A stretch of 64,000 nucleotides of DNA, taken from Escherichia virus TH22. The stretch lies in sequence record MT446396.1; one strand, written 5' to 3'. Both the position numbers and the translations under genes were made by a program. Position 1 is the first letter of the stretch, and each line of letters starts with the position of its first letter. Under the pieces are notes generated by a model that saw nothing but the letters and a program-made list of their open reading frames with translations, searched no databases and was not told the origin of the DNA. Below are positions 145-7,591 of the stretch, in pieces.

Positions 145-498
145 ATGGAACGGCCTAGTCTTGCATCACATGTTTATCAATTGGCTGAATATGATATTGG
201 TGCCAATTTATTATTAGGAATTGTCACCGCTATGCTCGGGGGGCTGGTTGGCCTGGTAATGACCACAGTTATGGCTGCAATCGAGGGAGTCATGCCTATT
301 GAGATGGGCTTCTTTATGATAATTGCTCCGGCTGTTGTGGCTTATTTTATCCCGGTTGTGTATGATATCTGTCACACAAATGCCTTGAATGCTCCTAGCC
401 GCAAGAGATACGCTTCGGCAATGGCTGAGTATAATAAGTTCCTAGACAAAACAAAACGCAATGACCTTGAAACCTTTATTAAGGAATGTAAATCATGA
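145..498 (+). CDS. hypothetical membrane protein
   Basis: ATG at 145 preceded by AAGGAGG; hydrophobic segments (LLLGIVTAMLGGLVGLVMTTVMAAI, FFMIIAPAVVAYFIPVV); track ORF 52..498 starts at GTG. Confidence 0.5.
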   Translation: MERPSLASHVYQLAEYDIGANLLLGIVTAMLGGLVGLVMTTVMAAIEGVMPIEMGFFMIIAPAVVAYFIPVVYDICHTNALNAPSRKRYASAMAEYNKFLDKTKRNDLETFIKECKS

Positions 499-785
499 AT
501 AAAATTGAAATTGCTATCCCCAAGTATTATGATGAGAAATCTGCAGAAAAAGCTATCTATTCTCTTCTAAATAAGACCTCTGAAATTGAAAAACACTGTG
601 AAGAAATCGCAGATGAATATGGTATCGAATTCAGCACTGGTGATTACGGCACCGGCCGTACATATCACCCAGTCGGTTATGGATGCTCTGAATGGTTCGC
701 TCACCATATTGAAAACAACGGCGGGCAAGTTGAAAACGGCATTGTTACTGTTGGTGCCTGGGTTTCCTCTTCTGAGGTGTGCTAA
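495..785 (+). CDS. small protein, WVSSS-x-EC C-terminal family, member 1
   Basis: ATGA overlap with upstream gene; C-terminus GAWVSSSEVC shared with next three genes. Confidence 0.55.
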   Translation: MNKIEIAIPKYYDEKSAEKAIYSLLNKTSEIEKHCEEIADEYGIEFSTGDYGTGRTYHPVGYGCSEWFAHHIENNGGQVENGIVTVGAWVSSSEVC

Positions 786-786
786 T

Positions 787-1068
787 ATGATGAATGATTA
801 CCGTAAAAATAAAGAACTGGCTAACGCAGTAAATGACATCCATAAAGCTATTCGTCGTGCCGAGGAAATTGCAAACAAATATGAGACTCATTTTAATATA
901 TACCCTGCTCGCGGTATGGGCGGTGACTATTATTCTCCTGGCGCCTTGAAAACTGACCTTGCTCATTGGGAAGAACATGGTGAAGCTCAATACGCTATTG
1001 TTAACCAACACGACTACACAACAAGCCTAGAGCATGGTGGTTGGGTGTCCTCTTCTTCTGAATGTTAA
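787..1068 (+). CDS. small protein, WVSSS-x-EC C-terminal family, member 2
   Basis: In-frame ATG at 787 directly after stop of member 1; ends GGWVSSSSEC; N-terminal region resembles member 1. Confidence 0.55.
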   Translation: MMNDYRKNKELANAVNDIHKAIRRAEEIANKYETHFNIYPARGMGGDYYSPGALKTDLAHWEEHGEAQYAIVNQHDYTTSLEHGGWVSSSSEC

Positions 1069-1076
1069 GGAATTAT

Positions 1077-1274
1077 ATGTCTCGTGAATTAGATTGTGCA
1101 ATCCGTACTGCTGCGGCAGCTATTGAAAACGTTATCCAGATTTGCAAAGAAGAACGCGAAGAAGCTGATATCTACATTGATGGTGTTCGTGACTTAGAAC
1201 GACATATCACGCTTTATAACGGTTGTATTACTATTAGTGGTACCTCTTGGGTATCATCCTCTTACGAATGCTAA
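1077..1274 (+). CDS. small protein, WVSSS-x-EC C-terminal family, member 3
   Basis: ATG 1077 with AAGGA upstream; ends TSWVSSSYEC. Confidence 0.55.
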   Translation: MSRELDCAIRTAAAAIENVIQICKEEREEADIYIDGVRDLERHITLYNGCITISGTSWVSSSYEC

Positions 1275-1284
1275 GGAAATAAAA

Positions 1285-1509
1285 ATGTCTGATATTAATG
1301 AATTAGAAAAAGCAGCACTTGAACTGGCTGCATTGTATAAGAAAGTAAAAGATATGGCTTCTGCTCAAGATTTTGGTGTCGAGCTCGATGATTATGACGG
1401 CGAAGTCCGACTTGAAGACTGGTTGAACAGCTCTTGTTATGGTGAAGAAGCTGGCCGTACCTTCGTTGCTCGTGCCGATGGTAAAATCTGGTACCCGAGC
1501 AGCTGCTAA
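1285..1509 (+). CDS. small protein, divergent member 4 of C-terminal Cys family
   Basis: ATG 1285 with AAGGAA SD; ends KIWYPSSC (W-x-x-SS-C, terminal Cys). Confidence 0.5.
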   Translation: MSDINELEKAALELAALYKKVKDMASAQDFGVELDDYDGEVRLEDWLNSSCYGEEAGRTFVARADGKIWYPSSC

Positions 1510-2325: not shown

Positions 2326-3285
2326 ATGATGTTAGTTATTGGCTCTCGCGCATTGCATAACGCCGGTCTGATTGAAAGTAAGAAAATTGAAAACTCTGAT
2401 TGGGACTTTATAGCAGACCAAGGTTCCTGGAACAACTTTAAAACCCAGATGATGGGGCAGCATGTTCCTGTGGATAACCCAGATGTGCAAGCTTTTAAGT
2501 GTATGCACAACGGTAAAGAAACCTATTTTGAAGCATACATCGTCCGAGCCCTGACAAGTGTTCGTGAGCTGACTGATGAGCTACAAGAGGAAGATTTTAC
2601 TTCCAGTTATCGTCTGCTCAAATATGCGAAGGCGAATATTCAGAAAGACCGTCTATCTGGTTTTTACTGGGCGACTCCTGATATTTGTCTGGCAATTAAA
2701 CTGTCTCATCGTTACCTGAAGAACAATCCATTCTTCCTGAAGACCATGAGTCATATTAATTACCTTCGTAATAAGGGTGTTGTTCTTAATGATGAACTGC
2801 AGAAAATCATGCTGCAACGCCAGGCAGAAACATTGTCATATAGCCACCCTAAACTAGACGTGGGCAAGAAAACTTTCTTTAATGATACAATCTATACCCT
2901 TGACCATGACTCCATCCACGAGGCCGTGGCACTTGCTGATAAGCCTGCATATAAGTTCTATATGAAGGATGATTCAGAAGTCATGACCTCACGTGAAAAA
3001 TTTGAAGCACTCCCTGATGTTATTAAACTGGCAGGGGTTTATGAAGAAGCATGTGTGCTTGCTCTGGAACGTTCACAGGTTCCTAATGAGTTCAATATCT
3101 CTCCATCCGTGAGCTTCCATATTGCTCTGGAAAAAGTCTGTACCTCCATTACTTCTGGATGGTTCCGTGAGTATGCCTGGGAACATTACCAGGATGTGGT
3201 TAATATGTACAACACCCTGGGACACGAAGACTATGTTAAACGTTTCAAAGCTAACCAACATTTAATTCGTCCTTTCGAAAAATAA
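2326..3285 (+). CDS. hypothetical protein, possible nucleotidyltransferase fold
   Basis: N-terminal GS-x16-SDWDF pattern reminiscent of Pol-beta NTase motif; SD GAGGAAAAT. Confidence 0.5.
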   Translation: MMLVIGSRALHNAGLIESKKIENSDWDFIADQGSWNNFKTQMMGQHVPVDNPDVQAFKCMHNGKETYFEAYIVRALTSVRELTDELQEEDFTSSYRLLKYAKANIQKDRLSGFYWATPDICLAIKLSHRYLKNNPFFLKTMSHINYLRNKGVVLNDELQKIMLQRQAETLSYSHPKLDVGKKTFFNDTIYTLDHDSIHEAVALADKPAYKFYMKDDSEVMTSREKFEALPDVIKLAGVYEEACVLALERSQVPNEFNISPSVSFHIALEKVCTSITSGWFREYAWEHYQDVVNMYNTLGHEDYVKRFKANQHLIRPFEK

Positions 3286-3286
3286 G

Positions 3287-3344
3287 TGTGTACAACCAAA
3301 TGGGGCTATGACATAATGGTCCCACAATCAATGAGGAAAATATT
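3287..3344 (+). promoter_or_regulatory. early (sigma70-like) promoter plus leader
   Basis: GTGTACAA -35, 17-nt spacer, CATAAT -10, leader CAATGAGGAAAAT. Confidence 0.5.
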
Positions 3345-4031
3345 ATGAACGGTCCTAAAACTTTTAATAGTCAAGCTCGTGCAGTAGGTGGTTTTGCCGG
3401 CGGTATTTCTAATGATAAAATCAAGAACGAGCCTATGTTCTTCAACTGTAGTTTAGAATTTGCTTATAATAACGGCGGTCCTATTACTCGCAGCTTCATC
3501 ATGAACTTGCCAGATGATTGGAACACCGACCAGGTTGTATTTGATTCTCGGGTTCATATGCTGATGCCTGGTTGGTATCCTGCTATCCCAGGTTATCACC
3601 ATGACGATGTACCACGCCCGGATATTCCGGTTGGTCAACACTTTATTACTGCAGGGCAACCTGATTATGATAATCCTCGTTACCATTCTGAACATATTCT
3701 TGGTCTTGTTAACGCTGATGTGTGTCCTACTTATTTTGCAACCGGAACTGCACAATTTAGTCAGATTCCTGAAGGCGAACTTATCTATCGCCAGTGGCAT
3801 AAAGAAGTTCTGGAAAAAATTGAGTCCAATGAATTAACCAAGTGGGATGCTCCTGACCGCACGTTGCTCCAGTTTGATTGGCAGACATGGCATACAGGTT
3901 CTCGCGCAGTAAGTAACGGTTGGCGCTGGTTTGGTCGCGTGTCTCGTAATACCGACCGTGTTAAAAAGATTACAAATGAAATCCGCGTTAATGCTCAAGT
4001 ATATCTGGAATTCCCTATGGAGGGATGGTAA
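3345..4031 (+). CDS. hypothetical protein
   Basis: Early promoter (GTGTACAA -35, CATAAT -10) and SD upstream; 228 aa. Confidence 0.5.
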   Translation: MNGPKTFNSQARAVGGFAGGISNDKIKNEPMFFNCSLEFAYNNGGPITRSFIMNLPDDWNTDQVVFDSRVHMLMPGWYPAIPGYHHDDVPRPDIPVGQHFITAGQPDYDNPRYHSEHILGLVNADVCPTYFATGTAQFSQIPEGELIYRQWHKEVLEKIESNELTKWDAPDRTLLQFDWQTWHTGSRAVSNGWRWFGRVSRNTDRVKKITNEIRVNAQVYLEFPMEGW

Positions 4032-4606
4032 TGATGTATGAACCCGGTTGCATGGGTGATATGAAAGGTCCACAAGGATGTGCAGGTATTCCAGTTCCAA
4101 GAGATGAATTTATGATTACCAAAAGATATTGGGCAGACCTTGATGATGGCGATGAAGGAATCAAGGTGGAAAACGTTGATTGGTCGCGATGCAATCGCCA
4201 TATGAAAGAGCTTTTAATTGAGGAATATAAAATGAAGCACATCGTTAAAGGTTGGCAACCAGAACCACATAAAGAACAAACACCTGACCCATTGATTTGT
4301 TATAGTGAAAAATATGGTTTTCGTACATGGAGCGATGAATATGACAAGTTAGTGTGCTCCAGATTCTATGCCTGGATGGGAATACTATTTTTTCCAATCC
4401 TGTGGTTTTTCCTGACAACGAAAAATGACTTGCCAGTTTGCATATTCGGGGCAGCAGTGACTGCGGCCATTGCAGGTATTATCGCCTCATTTTTATGGAC
4501 TGCGATTATTGAAGTACCTTTTCGTATTTCTAAAGTTAAAAAGGTATATGACAATATCACAAAGAAAAATACATTGAACTCTTTTATTGAGGAATGTCGC
4601 AAATGA
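4025..4606 (+). CDS. hypothetical membrane protein
   Basis: C-terminal hydrophobic segments (WMGILFFPILWFFL, IFGAAVTAAIAGIIASFLW). Confidence 0.45.
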   Translation: MVMMYEPGCMGDMKGPQGCAGIPVPRDEFMITKRYWADLDDGDEGIKVENVDWSRCNRHMKELLIEEYKMKHIVKGWQPEPHKEQTPDPLICYSEKYGFRTWSDEYDKLVCSRFYAWMGILFFPILWFFLTTKNDLPVCIFGAAVTAAIAGIIASFLWTAIIEVPFRISKVKKVYDNITKKNTLNSFIEECRK

Positions 4607-4839: not shown

Positions 4840-5290
4840 GAAAAACGTGGTGAAAGAATTATCTGCTGGCATTATTTTCATGACTGAAGATAAAGAGTTA
4901 TTCATGGGGCGCGTGACTGGTTCTCGCAAACCGGGTATGCCTGCGCATAAATGGGATATCCCTAAGGGTCATGTTGAAGCCGGTGAATCCCCGATTGAAG
5001 CAGCTATGCGTGAATGTGAAGAAGAAACAGGCTTTACCCAGTATGACCCGGCATTCTTAAAAGACCTAGGCGAGTTCCGTTATTCAGATAACAAAAACCT
5101 TCACCTGTTTTTGTACACGGCCCCGGTCGAGCATGAGCAGTTCAGACATAGTAAATGCTCTGCCTATCATACCTTCCCGGATGGTAGTTCGGCCCCCGAG
5201 TTTGATGCATTTGCTCTGATTAAACCGAGCCAATGGCAATACGTAATGGGTAAATCGATGTACAAGGTTTTGACTCAAATTTTCGGATAA
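4829..5290 (+). CDS. nudE: Nudix hydrolase NudE-like
   Basis: Nudix box GHVEAGESPIEAAMRECEEETG; sits directly upstream of lysozyme e as in T4. Confidence 0.8.
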   Translation: MMSKKNVVKELSAGIIFMTEDKELFMGRVTGSRKPGMPAHKWDIPKGHVEAGESPIEAAMRECEEETGFTQYDPAFLKDLGEFRYSDNKNLHLFLYTAPVEHEQFRHSKCSAYHTFPDGSSAPEFDAFALIKPSQWQYVMGKSMYKVLTQIFG

Positions 5291-5808: not shown

Positions 5809-5864
5809 GTTTACATCTCCAAACGATAGGGTTATAATGACCCTATCAACTACGGAGAACAAAC
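5809..5864 (+). promoter_or_regulatory. early promoter with -10 inside inverted repeat, upstream of denV
   Basis: GTTTACA -35, TATAAT -10 within GATAGGG..CCCTATC, leader ATCAACTACGGAG. Confidence 0.55.
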
Positions 5865-6281
5865 ATGACTCGCATTAATTTAACCCTGGTATCTGAACTT
5901 GCTGACCAACACCTTATGGCTGAATACCGTGAGCTTCCTCGCGTGTTTGGTGCTGTTCGTAAGCATGTGCAAAATGGTAAAAAGGTGTCTGACTTTAAAA
6001 TCCCATCATCTTTTCTTTTAGGAACTGGTCATGTCACCTTCTTTTATGATAAGCTTTTGTTCCTTAAAAACCGTCATCAAGAACTTATTGCTGAATGTTT
6101 AAAGCGAGGGTTTAATATAAAAGATATTTCTACCCAAGATTTAAATGATATTCCTGATGAATGGAAGAATGATTATCAACCATCAATCTGGTCAATTGAA
6201 ATCAGTCAATCCAGACTGAATGAGAAAATTTCTCAAAAGCCTACCTGGTACAAATACTATGGGAAAGCTGTGTACGCTTAA
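5865..6281 (+). CDS. denV: endonuclease V (pyrimidine dimer DNA glycosylase)
   Basis: 138 aa; [35 protein letters not shown] near-identical to T4 endo V. Confidence 0.95.
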
Positions 6282-6657: not shown

Positions 6658-6921
6658 ATGAAAACTTATCAAGAATTTATTACTGAATCCGCTAAAGCTC
6701 CTGCTGGTTCCTTTAAAGTCCGCGCCTTCGCTGGTGATGCTGAAGACTTTGGTACCATGAAGCGCAATGGTTATTCTTTCTTTGGCGGCGATGGCAAAGA
6801 AATTGTTACCTATGCAAAACGCCGCGAAATCGCATTTGTGGTTGCTGGTAAGAAAGTTGATGTTGACGATATTGAATGGGACTTTGAGACCTTTGGTATT
6901 GTTTCTGGCGGTAAAGCGTAA
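6658..6921 (+). CDS. internal protein with capsid-targeting sequence
   Basis: N-terminus MKTYQEFITESAKA; cargo domain unrelated to the neighbouring IP. Confidence 0.75.
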   Translation: MKTYQEFITESAKAPAGSFKVRAFAGDAEDFGTMKRNGYSFFGGDGKEIVTYAKRREIAFVVAGKKVDVDDIEWDFETFGIVSGGKA

Positions 6922-7063
6922 TAATTAAATGGGAATAACCTGGACCTCAATCCTGAGGGACTCCCGCCAACCTGTAATAAGGTCGAGCCCGCGGCGGTAA
7001 TGGGTAATACAGGAAGGGATGAATTAATGTGCCAAGGAACGGCCCCACAACTAAGAGACAACT

Positions 7064-7591
7064 ATGAAATTTTTAACTCCAATTTATCTAACCTTAATGC
7101 ACGCCTTCGCTGAACGCGCCATTGAACGCTTAGATTCAGACCAATACACCTGGTATGAACCTACTTCAAGAATGCAAGAGTTTGGTACTCTTAGACTTGA
7201 TGGTGGAAGACAAACAGGTAAAACAAGTGCCATTGCACAGTTCGCCGCAGATTGGGTTTCTAAGGGTAATGATGTGATTGTTATGTCGAGTTCTTCGCAT
7301 CGCTCACGAGAAATCTGTGATATAATAAAGCGGGTTTCTAAAGCACAACCACATCTTAATGTTGAACGACCTGGTTTTGTTGTATATGATACCGTTCGTT
7401 CATTTTTAGACGAAGATAATTTCCATAAGTATCGTGGGTTATCTGTTACTCGATTATTGATTATTATCGAAGAGCCTATTCGCCTTCCAGCGATGGATAA
7501 GTTCTATGAAGCTTACCAGGTAATGCTGAATAAATTTATGTGTCAAGGTTCTAAACCTCTGCCGTTATTCTTTGTGATAGGAATGCAATAA
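7064..7591 (+). CDS. hypothetical protein with P-loop-like motif
   Basis: GGRQTGKTS (Walker A-like) and LLIIIEEP (Walker B-like). Confidence 0.45.
   Translation: MKFLTPIYLTLMHAFAERAIERLDSDQYTWYEPTSRMQEFGTLRLDGGRQTGKTSAIAQFAADWVSKGNDVIVMSSSSHRSREICDIIKRVSKAQPHLNVERPGFVVYDTVRSFLDEDNFHKYRGLSVTRLLIIIEEPIRLPAMDKFYEAYQVMLNKFMCQGSKPLPLFFVIGMQ

Follow-up and report, generated by a model that had tools for sequence, protein, structure and literature searches.

A tandem array of four small genes lies at positions 495-1509 of a 64,000-nucleotide stretch of Escherichia virus TH22 (sequence record MT446396.1), the whole of which is called the window here, and the products of these genes end in a short tail with a Trp, a Ser pair and a terminal Cys. 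We found that the genes belong to a large, uncharacterised and apparently phage-only family of small proteins, in which the tail is the most conserved part, and that this family is co-inherited with the gene of an enzyme made up of the domains DUF7277 and DUF7275, the first of which has a signature like that of nucleotidyltransferases (NTases). In our best reading the tail would be a handle for this NTase-like enzyme and probably also the acceptor site. Taken together, the family and the linkage suggest an undescribed protein-modification or effector system. The four genes, g1 to g4, and the gene of the partner enzyme are as follows (aa, amino acids; pI, isoelectric point).

g1, 495..785, + strand: 96 aa, acidic, pI 4.7; end ...GAWVSSSEVC, with WVSSSEVC coded at 759-782
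g2, 787..1068, + strand: 93 aa; end ...GGWVSSSSEC, with WVSSSSEC coded at 1042-1065
g3, 1077..1274, + strand: 65 aa, or 70 aa if the ATG at 1062 is used; end ...TSWVSSSYEC, with WVSSSYEC coded at 1248-1271
g4, 1285..1509, + strand: 74 aa; end ...KIWYPSSC, with the short tail WYPSSC coded at 1489-1506
Partner enzyme, 2326..3285, + strand: 319 aa; DUF7277 (N-terminal) and DUF7275; phrog_2141

The four tail genes of the window

The window belongs to a T4-like coliphage, and the region is 95.8% identical to that of UPEC01 and 83-94% identical to those of VR5, VR7, VR25, and SP18. The initial annotation had described four tandem genes with a conserved tail and this holds, as an end of the form W..S..C was found in g1 to g4 only, which is 4 out of the 1098 open reading frames (ORFs) of the window (six frames, at least 30 aa). 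The genes are tightly packed in one direction with AAGGAA/GAGG ribosome-binding sites, and promoter and terminator scans stayed at background level. Of the four, g1, g2, and g4 fall into phrog_899 (E 1.7e-21, 1.1e-19, and 5.3e-10, respectively) and g3 into phrog_4882 (E 2.4e-36), both of which are annotated as 'unknown function'. The family hidden Markov model (HMM) matches g1 with E 1e-21; g2, whose sole Cys is the terminal one, matches 281 phage records (tblastn); and the cluster of g4, which also has an internal copy of the tail (WLNSSC, aa 46-51, coded at 1420-1437), is present in 31 related loci. The g3 orthologue in RB69 is ORF136c, which ends in QGWVSSSYSC. With the last 10 residues excluded, identity between the paralogs is roughly 25-36% over aligned positions. 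Their N-terminal parts had been noted at the outset as divergent, which is too simple a description. A common fold with a second conserved motif, YGMGGTYY (degenerate in both), is shared by g1 and g2, and g3 and g4 are related to this fold only weakly when a tail-less HMM is used (E about 5e-3), g3 being without the YGMGG hairpin.

Conservation of the tail in the small-protein family

When 1.84 billion representative proteins were scanned exhaustively with HMMER (E <=1e-3), the family came to at least 166 clusters at 50% identity, nearly all of them 65-145 aa long and with a match that nearly always reaches the last residue. A narrower homologue search with the four-paralog alignment gave 22 matches, close relatives only. 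Members of the family are acidic (median pI 4.6) and have four elements, namely an N-terminal amphipathic helix (...AExIADEhGlxF), the hairpin motif aYGMGGTYYP, an acidic variable linker in which extra W-x-S-S repeats are frequent, and the C-terminus G-x-W-[VIM]-S-S-S-x-x-C. Longer members (up to 220 aa, which fit the long profile of phrog_899) result for the most part from artefacts in the calling of start codons, and no informative fusion domain was found among them. Neither g1 to g4 nor 144 family members gave a consistent match in Pfam, NCBIfam, or PADLOC, and among the neighbouring genes these scans gave the two DUFs of the enzyme only.

In a set of 170 sequences Cys was the last residue in 157, and the motif-bearing exceptions have at most one residue after it; in a small subgroup there is one such residue. 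The 157 Cys-ending members are diverse. W(-8) and S(-5) are each kept in 153 of them and S(-4) in 151, while the terminal Cys is the sole Cys in 83. The general form of the tail is W-x-[S/A/P]-S-S-x(0-2)-C-COOH with the constant core W-x-x-S-S. The information content of W, S, S, and C is 4.0-4.3 bits each as against a mean of 1.4 bits over the remaining protein, and the near-invariant residues of the family are A29, Y42, G43, G45, W86, S89, S90, and C93. When 96 distinct tail DNAs were compared, all six Ser codons and both Cys codons were found at the invariant positions, and therefore the selection is on the amino acids and not on DNA or RNA. This codon diversity rules out a nucleotide-level cause of the conservation, such as a ribosome-binding site or an RNA element for the next gene.

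Ascertainment was controlled for by running a tail-less HMM on loci that had been gathered through the neighbouring enzyme. It gave 143 matches. The strict tail is present in 114, and almost every other match has a relaxed W..S..C end (e.g. WMASASSC, WYSSHC, WNSSNC), and thus the conservation of the tail is not an ascertainment artefact. In the 80 enzyme loci the strict motif stands at the end of 179 of 4475 ORFs on the same strand and of none of 6552 on the opposite strand. The tail stays conserved where overall identity is about 30% and occurs also on scaffolds without detectable homology (e.g. 2223 and 2652 in locus L062, 2595 in L085). Selection on the tail itself, which had been suggested from the window alone, is thus supported at the sequence level by the information content, the codon diversity, and the recovery with a tail-less HMM. 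It had also been considered that the tail might be lacking or vary freely in other phages, as an accident of recent duplication. It persists in them, since it is kept at about 30% identity, is written with all the Ser codons, and is found without being used in the search. As regards attachment at the Cys, CaaX-type lipidation involves a Cys four residues from the end followed by aliphatic residues, whereas here the Cys itself is terminal, and no signature of lipidation or of a metal site was found in the small proteins.

A variant of the motif was observed in one lineage (L072, L074, L077, L081, L083, L084), where proteins of ~135 aa encoded upstream of the enzyme have it internally (..LWESSGGC..). 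They run about 16 residues past the motif (..EWETSAQEGYDYGWNV), so that the Cys is not terminal.

Linkage of the tail genes to the enzyme

The linkage was examined from both sides. Starting from the small proteins, we searched with a degenerate DNA pattern for YGMGGTYY and obtained 24 viral contigs, and in every one of those with at least about 1.5 kb of downstream DNA the enzyme gene is downstream on the same strand. The Erwinia jumbo phage Kaldavass, whose genome has 366 kb, likewise has a small gene followed by that of the enzyme. On the enzyme side, 80 viral loci of the long enzyme subfamily were analysed and tail genes detectable by HMM were found upstream on the same strand in 73, a number that rises to 78 when downstream matches and motif-only ORFs are included. 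There are 1-6 copies of the tail gene per locus, and one of the two exceptions is a locus without upstream DNA. When the same-strand ORFs of the 80 loci were clustered, no clusters other than those of the tail genes and the enzyme were common across lineages. The order can be reversed, as in the metagenomic contig L152, where the enzyme comes first and is followed by three tail genes.

The initial annotation had named three neighbours as possible partners of the array. The NTase-like protein (2326-3285) is upheld as one by the linkage conserved in 78 of the 80 loci. The His-rich protein (1540-1869) did not turn up in any cluster shared outside T4-like loci, and the HHDD-containing protein (3345-4031) was found in T4-like loci only; neither is upheld as a partner, and both are lineage-specific passengers outside the conserved module.

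The partner enzyme and its short subfamily

The Pfam matches of the enzyme are PF23942 (E 6e-27) and PF23940 (E 2e-75). Its DUF7277 has an NTase-like signature, G6-S7 ... D25-x-D27, in which G6, S7, D25, and D27 are invariant in 12 diverse sequences, and a third acidic strand (hEhxh) is conserved in the same set. The enzyme thereby has the Pol-beta signature hG[GS]-x(9-13)-Dh[DE]h with a third acidic residue; the spacing from G to D is 10-17 residues, with T4-like members slightly above the canonical range. In DUF7275 the invariant residues are K125, H128, N133, R165, Y172, H174, D193-H194-D195, and H198, and further E240-E241, E248-R249, K270, C272, W279, R281, and E286. An assignment of DUF7275 as an HD domain was dropped as unsupported, since hhalign against E. 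coli GlnD gave nothing. At 90% identity the enzyme forms more than 2,300 clusters, every one of which is either called hypothetical or wrongly annotated; two GenBank records of homologues carry the name nucleotidyltransferase.

A short subfamily of the enzyme (about 255 aa, phrog_6944) was found in Streptomyces, Gordonia, and KVP40-like Vibrio phages. It retains GS, DxD, K125, H128, HDxxH, EE, ER, and K270, but it has Ile in place of Cys272 and is without Y172 and H174-P175. Of 35 such loci, 34 are without tail genes and have, flanking the enzyme, 1-4 tandem copies of another uncharacterised small family of about 100 aa, which we call 'GYY' (..GGEGxG..F..GYYxSYDG..WDG..EVxP..; phrog_18295, phrog_13591, phrog_16046). 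This family had no match in the 80 long-subfamily loci, and since hhalign of the tail family against it gave a probability of <1% the two are treated as unrelated. The enzyme superfamily always travels with small-protein arrays, which are of two mutually exclusive partner families, and the enzyme has its invariant Cys272 only in combination with a partner that ends in Cys. The short-subfamily loci are listed here.

Short-subfamily loci: L114, 4130-4822; L115, 4100-4390; L116, 2806-3102; L117-L151

Predicted structure of g2

AlphaFold2 with a 144-sequence alignment gave a model of g2 with a predicted local distance difference test (pLDDT) of 95.2 and a predicted template modelling score (pTM) of 0.82, whereas with a 10-sequence alignment the model was poor (pLDDT 58). 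The model has a long helix (residues 2-31), a hairpin (35-41 and 44-49) with the YGMGG sequence at its turn, a helix (51-63), a short helix, and a third strand (84-88) formed by GGWVS. The last block, S-E-C at residues 91-93, has a mean pLDDT of 65. In this model the Trp belongs to the fold and S-S-x-x-C looks like an exposed linear motif. The predicted fold has no close match in the PDB and no beta-grasp match, and PDB sequence and profile searches with g2 and the family profile gave spurious matches to designed helices or none.

A proposed role for the tail and its alternatives

The explanation that we favour is that the tail would be the element by which each paralog engages the co-inherited DUF7277+DUF7275 enzyme, because the linkage holds in both directions, the partner switches with the enzyme subfamily, and the tail is exposed and invariant on differing bodies. 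The enzyme would dock the tail and then modify it covalently, which we put forward tentatively, as a possibility that falls somewhat short of even. With less confidence than in docking and modification, we favour a chemistry in which the invariant Ser pair receives a nucleotidyl or phosphoryl-linked group, by analogy with GlnD-PII, MntA-HepT, and CitX-CitD, in which Pol-beta-fold enzymes modify a hydroxyl of a small partner protein. The terminal thiol would contact the subfamily-specific Cys272/His-rich site of the enzyme. After modification the small proteins would have their effect in the infected cell, every paralog relying for this on the divergent body that is its own. What we infer is a physical interaction, an NTase activity, a modification of the tail with its particular chemistry, and perhaps a role in the host. 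A wider version, which we regard as doubtful, is that of a phage-specific modification system that puts a nucleotide-derived or thioether-type group on Ser-Ser...Cys tails and so turns the small proteins into early effectors, decoys, or carriers in host takeover or counter-defence, with a sister system acting on the other small family in actinophages and KVP40-like phages.

Several observations weigh against this explanation. The locus L050 keeps the enzyme but has lost the array, the region being replaced at that locus, and in T4-like phages 0.2-1.3 kb of unrelated small genes lie between the array and the enzyme. In the g2 model the tail Trp is buried in a beta-strand, and therefore part of the tail motif would be structural. 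The co-variation of Cys272 with the partner Cys amounts to a single evolutionary split, and the short subfamily shows that the enzyme family needs no Cys tail as such. A model in which the small proteins are substrates also leaves up to six diverged copies per phage unexplained. As for the enzyme itself, none of the Pfam NTase families matched it at E <=10, PDB sequence and profile searches with it gave no match, and hhalign against E. coli GlnD found nothing (probability 0.1%), and because of this its assignment as an NTase stays at the level of a short motif.

The small proteins could instead be adaptors or regulatory subunits, with a tail that plugs into the enzyme and perhaps completes an active or metal site through the Cys thiolate and with divergent bodies that recruit different host targets for the enzyme to modify. 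Such a role would account for one enzyme together with 1-6 diverged paralogs that have a docking tail alone in common, for tails on scaffolds without detectable homology, and for the co-variation of Cys272 and the partner Cys; moreover, the short subfamily likewise keeps 1-4 partner genes. Most of the bodies are, however, well conserved (YGMGGTYY, AExIADE) and not hypervariable, and it is not obvious what the invariant Ser-Ser pair would do in a motif used for docking alone. We consider this model unlikely. The linkage may also reflect no more than a shared pathway or co-regulation, with a tail that serves independently of the enzyme as a structural cap and as a thiol on a flexible arm for metal, redox, or sulfur-carrier functions, as in DsrC, TusE, and the NrdA tail, or as a mimic of or tag for a host factor. 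The position of the Trp in a beta-strand agrees with this, shuttle arms typically have one exposed Cys at their end, L050 has the enzyme without the array, and the subfamily without Cys-tailed partners still functions with other proteins. It is nevertheless made quite unlikely by the near-obligate linkage in T4-like, jumbo, roughly 98-kb Pseudomonas, and metagenomic phages, in which no other gene is common, and by the two mutually exclusive partner families that follow the enzyme subfamily; furthermore, no His, Asp, or second Cys that might form a metal site is invariant in the small proteins.

An arrangement of the toxin-antitoxin kind was considered as well, in which the enzyme would be a host-shutoff toxin and the small acidic proteins would inhibit it by blocking the active site with their tails and thereby time its activity. 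MenT and AbiEii are NTases that act on tRNA, and a small gene followed by an NTase-like gene (~300 aa) resembles the order of an antitoxin-toxin operon, with partner proteins that are acidic (median pI 4.6). What renders this improbable is that there was no PADLOC or Pfam match to AbiEii/DUF1814, that the module is nearly missing from bacteria, where toxin-antitoxin systems thrive, that it would be unusual for one toxin to have as many as six antitoxin paralogs, and that the gene order is reversible (L152) or interrupted. The enzyme may otherwise work in the manner of maturases of ribosomally synthesised and post-translationally modified peptides (RiPPs), activating a tail Ser through nucleotidylation or phosphorylation, eliminating it to dehydroalanine, and adding the terminal Cys at a His/Cys site to give a lanthionine-type ring on a folded carrier. 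The Ser-Ser pair stands 0-2 residues before the terminal Cys and spacings of i+1 to i+4 suit thioether rings, arrays of small genes beside one enzyme are reminiscent of multi-precursor RiPP clusters, and the invariant His residues and Cys272, the latter present only where the partner has a Cys, are of the types found in Zn sites. Yet neither the window nor the conserved neighbourhood yielded a homologue of LanB, LanM, LanC, LanKC, or a radical-SAM enzyme, the putative core is conserved whereas RiPP cores usually vary, the body is a predicted folded domain (pLDDT 95) and not a leader peptide, and the variable spacing between Ser and Cys speaks against one ring geometry. We consider this the least probable of the alternatives, and a very improbable one.

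Distribution and surroundings of the module

Among 50,697 deposited phage genomes, 731 code for the enzyme. These include T4-like coliphages except T4, phages of Acinetobacter, Aeromonas, Pseudomonas, Vibrio, and Stenotrophomonas, jumbo phages, and actinophages. Among 185,579 species-representative bacterial genomes it was found on five contigs of metagenome-assembled genomes only. The module is essentially absent from bacterial genomes and the small family is essentially phage-only. In T4 the block is missing from the syntenic locus, where e.3 abuts e.2, and in RB69 it lies between e.3 and e.2, which agrees with the initial remark that the array was not one familiar from T4. The T4 e-region synteny is confirmed by a Nudix hydrolase downstream (window 4840-5290; motif GHVEAGESPIEAAMRECEEETG), which is an otherwise ordinary NudE/e.1 orthologue.

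Among relatives the copy number of the tail genes is fluid. In VR25, VR20, VR26, and relatives (L027-L033, L039; about 2646-3470) a fifth paralog, missing from the window, lies between the g3 and g4 orthologues and ends in ...GFWF[N/S/T]SSMSC. In the T4-like loci L035-L042 another paralog (e.g. ...INGWQSSSYQC) lies about 0.5 kb upstream of the enzyme. The g1 orthologue of RB69 (locus L001) is frameshifted into ORF139c (71 aa) and ORF138c at 3679-3985, the latter being a 52-aa ORF (3827-3985) that ends in ...GAWVSSPALC, and its intact counterpart on the contig L034 ends in GAWVSSSALC. The split may be a pseudogene, a sequencing error, or a programmed frameshift.

The genes that flank the module code for membrane proteins (e.3-like, e.2-like, RB69 ORF133c) with a common C-terminal motif, [E/N]-x-F-I-x-E-C-[R/K], for example ETFIKECKS, NSFIEECRK, ENFIKECRK, ENFIKECRGK, and ERFITECRNLR. 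By their sequences these appear to be a second paralog family with a Cys-containing conserved C-terminus in the same hyperplastic region.

Flanking Cys-motif membrane proteins, window: 52-498; 4025-4606
Flanking Cys-motif membrane proteins, RB69 (L001): 3323-3682; 5831-6136; 6818-7315

The HHDD protein, which lies directly downstream of the enzyme (window 3345-4031), has 228 aa, belongs to phrog_1843, and contains the motifs PGYHHDD and WHTG. It had no Pfam match, and in the PDB it weakly resembles isopentenyl-diphosphate isomerase (E 0.08), which is probably a spurious match. In the loci of jumbo and some other large phages among L065, L067, L068, L073, L076, L079, L082, L088, and L102, a metallophosphoesterase of ~250 aa is encoded 0.3-2.5 kb downstream of the enzyme; its ORF cluster occurs in 15 loci. 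Its counterpart in Kaldavass (L002, 6624-7403) is annotated as a NinI-like Ser/Thr phosphatase, and its link with the enzyme could be functional or coincidental.

Comparison with known systems

The window genes are clear members of phrog_899, phrog_4882, and phrog_2141 and of DUF7277+DUF7275, but the annotations returned for these are silent on the tail, the arrays, and the linkage, and no description of the motif, the DUFs, or their pairing was found in the literature searched. Neither the enzyme nor its small partners were found with a known function, a solved structure, or a paper. If a modification is found, it would be new protein chemistry in phages and would define a new class of early phage effectors. 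If there is none, the module would still rank with those unexplained gene pairs that are more widespread in large virulent phages, and many such phages are candidates for therapy.

The systems that are closest in concept are GlnD-PII and MntA-HepT. They have in common with the module an NTase-signature enzyme with a second domain, which in GlnD is an HD domain, and a small protein with a conserved hydroxyl-bearing loop or tail as the would-be acceptor. Unlike in these systems, where the acceptor is a Tyr in a loop and the partners are PII trimers or HEPN RNases, the acceptor here would be a Ser-Ser-x-x-Cys C-terminus on phage-only proteins that are encoded in tandem arrays and have no close PDB fold, and no sequence or profile similarity was detected. 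The HEPN motif R-x(4-6)-H of MntA-HepT, a type VII toxin-antitoxin system, has no counterpart in the small family, which is without a conserved Arg or His. CitX/MdcG have an NTase fold and load a ~100-aa acidic carrier (CitD/MdcC) with a prosthetic group at a Ser, and the small acidic protein, the Ser as a possible attachment point, and the thiol at the working end are alike. The thiol here, however, is the protein's own terminal Cys, there are several paralogs, and neither a citrate or malonate lyase context nor homology was detected.

ThiS/MoaD and LysW are small carriers with invariant C-terminal tails that are activated by a dedicated enzyme, and the module resembles them in having a small domain, an invariant flexible C-terminal arm, and a partner enzyme. 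The tail here is W-x-S-S-S-x-x-C and not GG or EDWGE, the partner is not E1-like or of the ATP-grasp type, and the beta-grasp fold with a C-terminal Gly-Gly that marks ThiS/MoaD was not found. Multi-precursor RiPP clusters, such as those of lanthipeptides with Nif11 or NHLP leaders, likewise have tandem small genes next to one enzyme with Ser/Thr and Cys in the C-terminal segment, as was found here, but in the module the C-terminal segment is conserved and the body is folded. No Pfam domain of a known RiPP maturase (LanB/LanC, LanM, LanKC/LanL, or other) was found in the window neighbours, and no further gene is conserved across the 80 loci. Because both parts of the module lie in bins of 'unknown function', the literature is silent, and the tests for characterised families failed or were undecided, we rate the module as new, although an enzyme with a small tailed partner has, as a concept, precedents in the systems described above.

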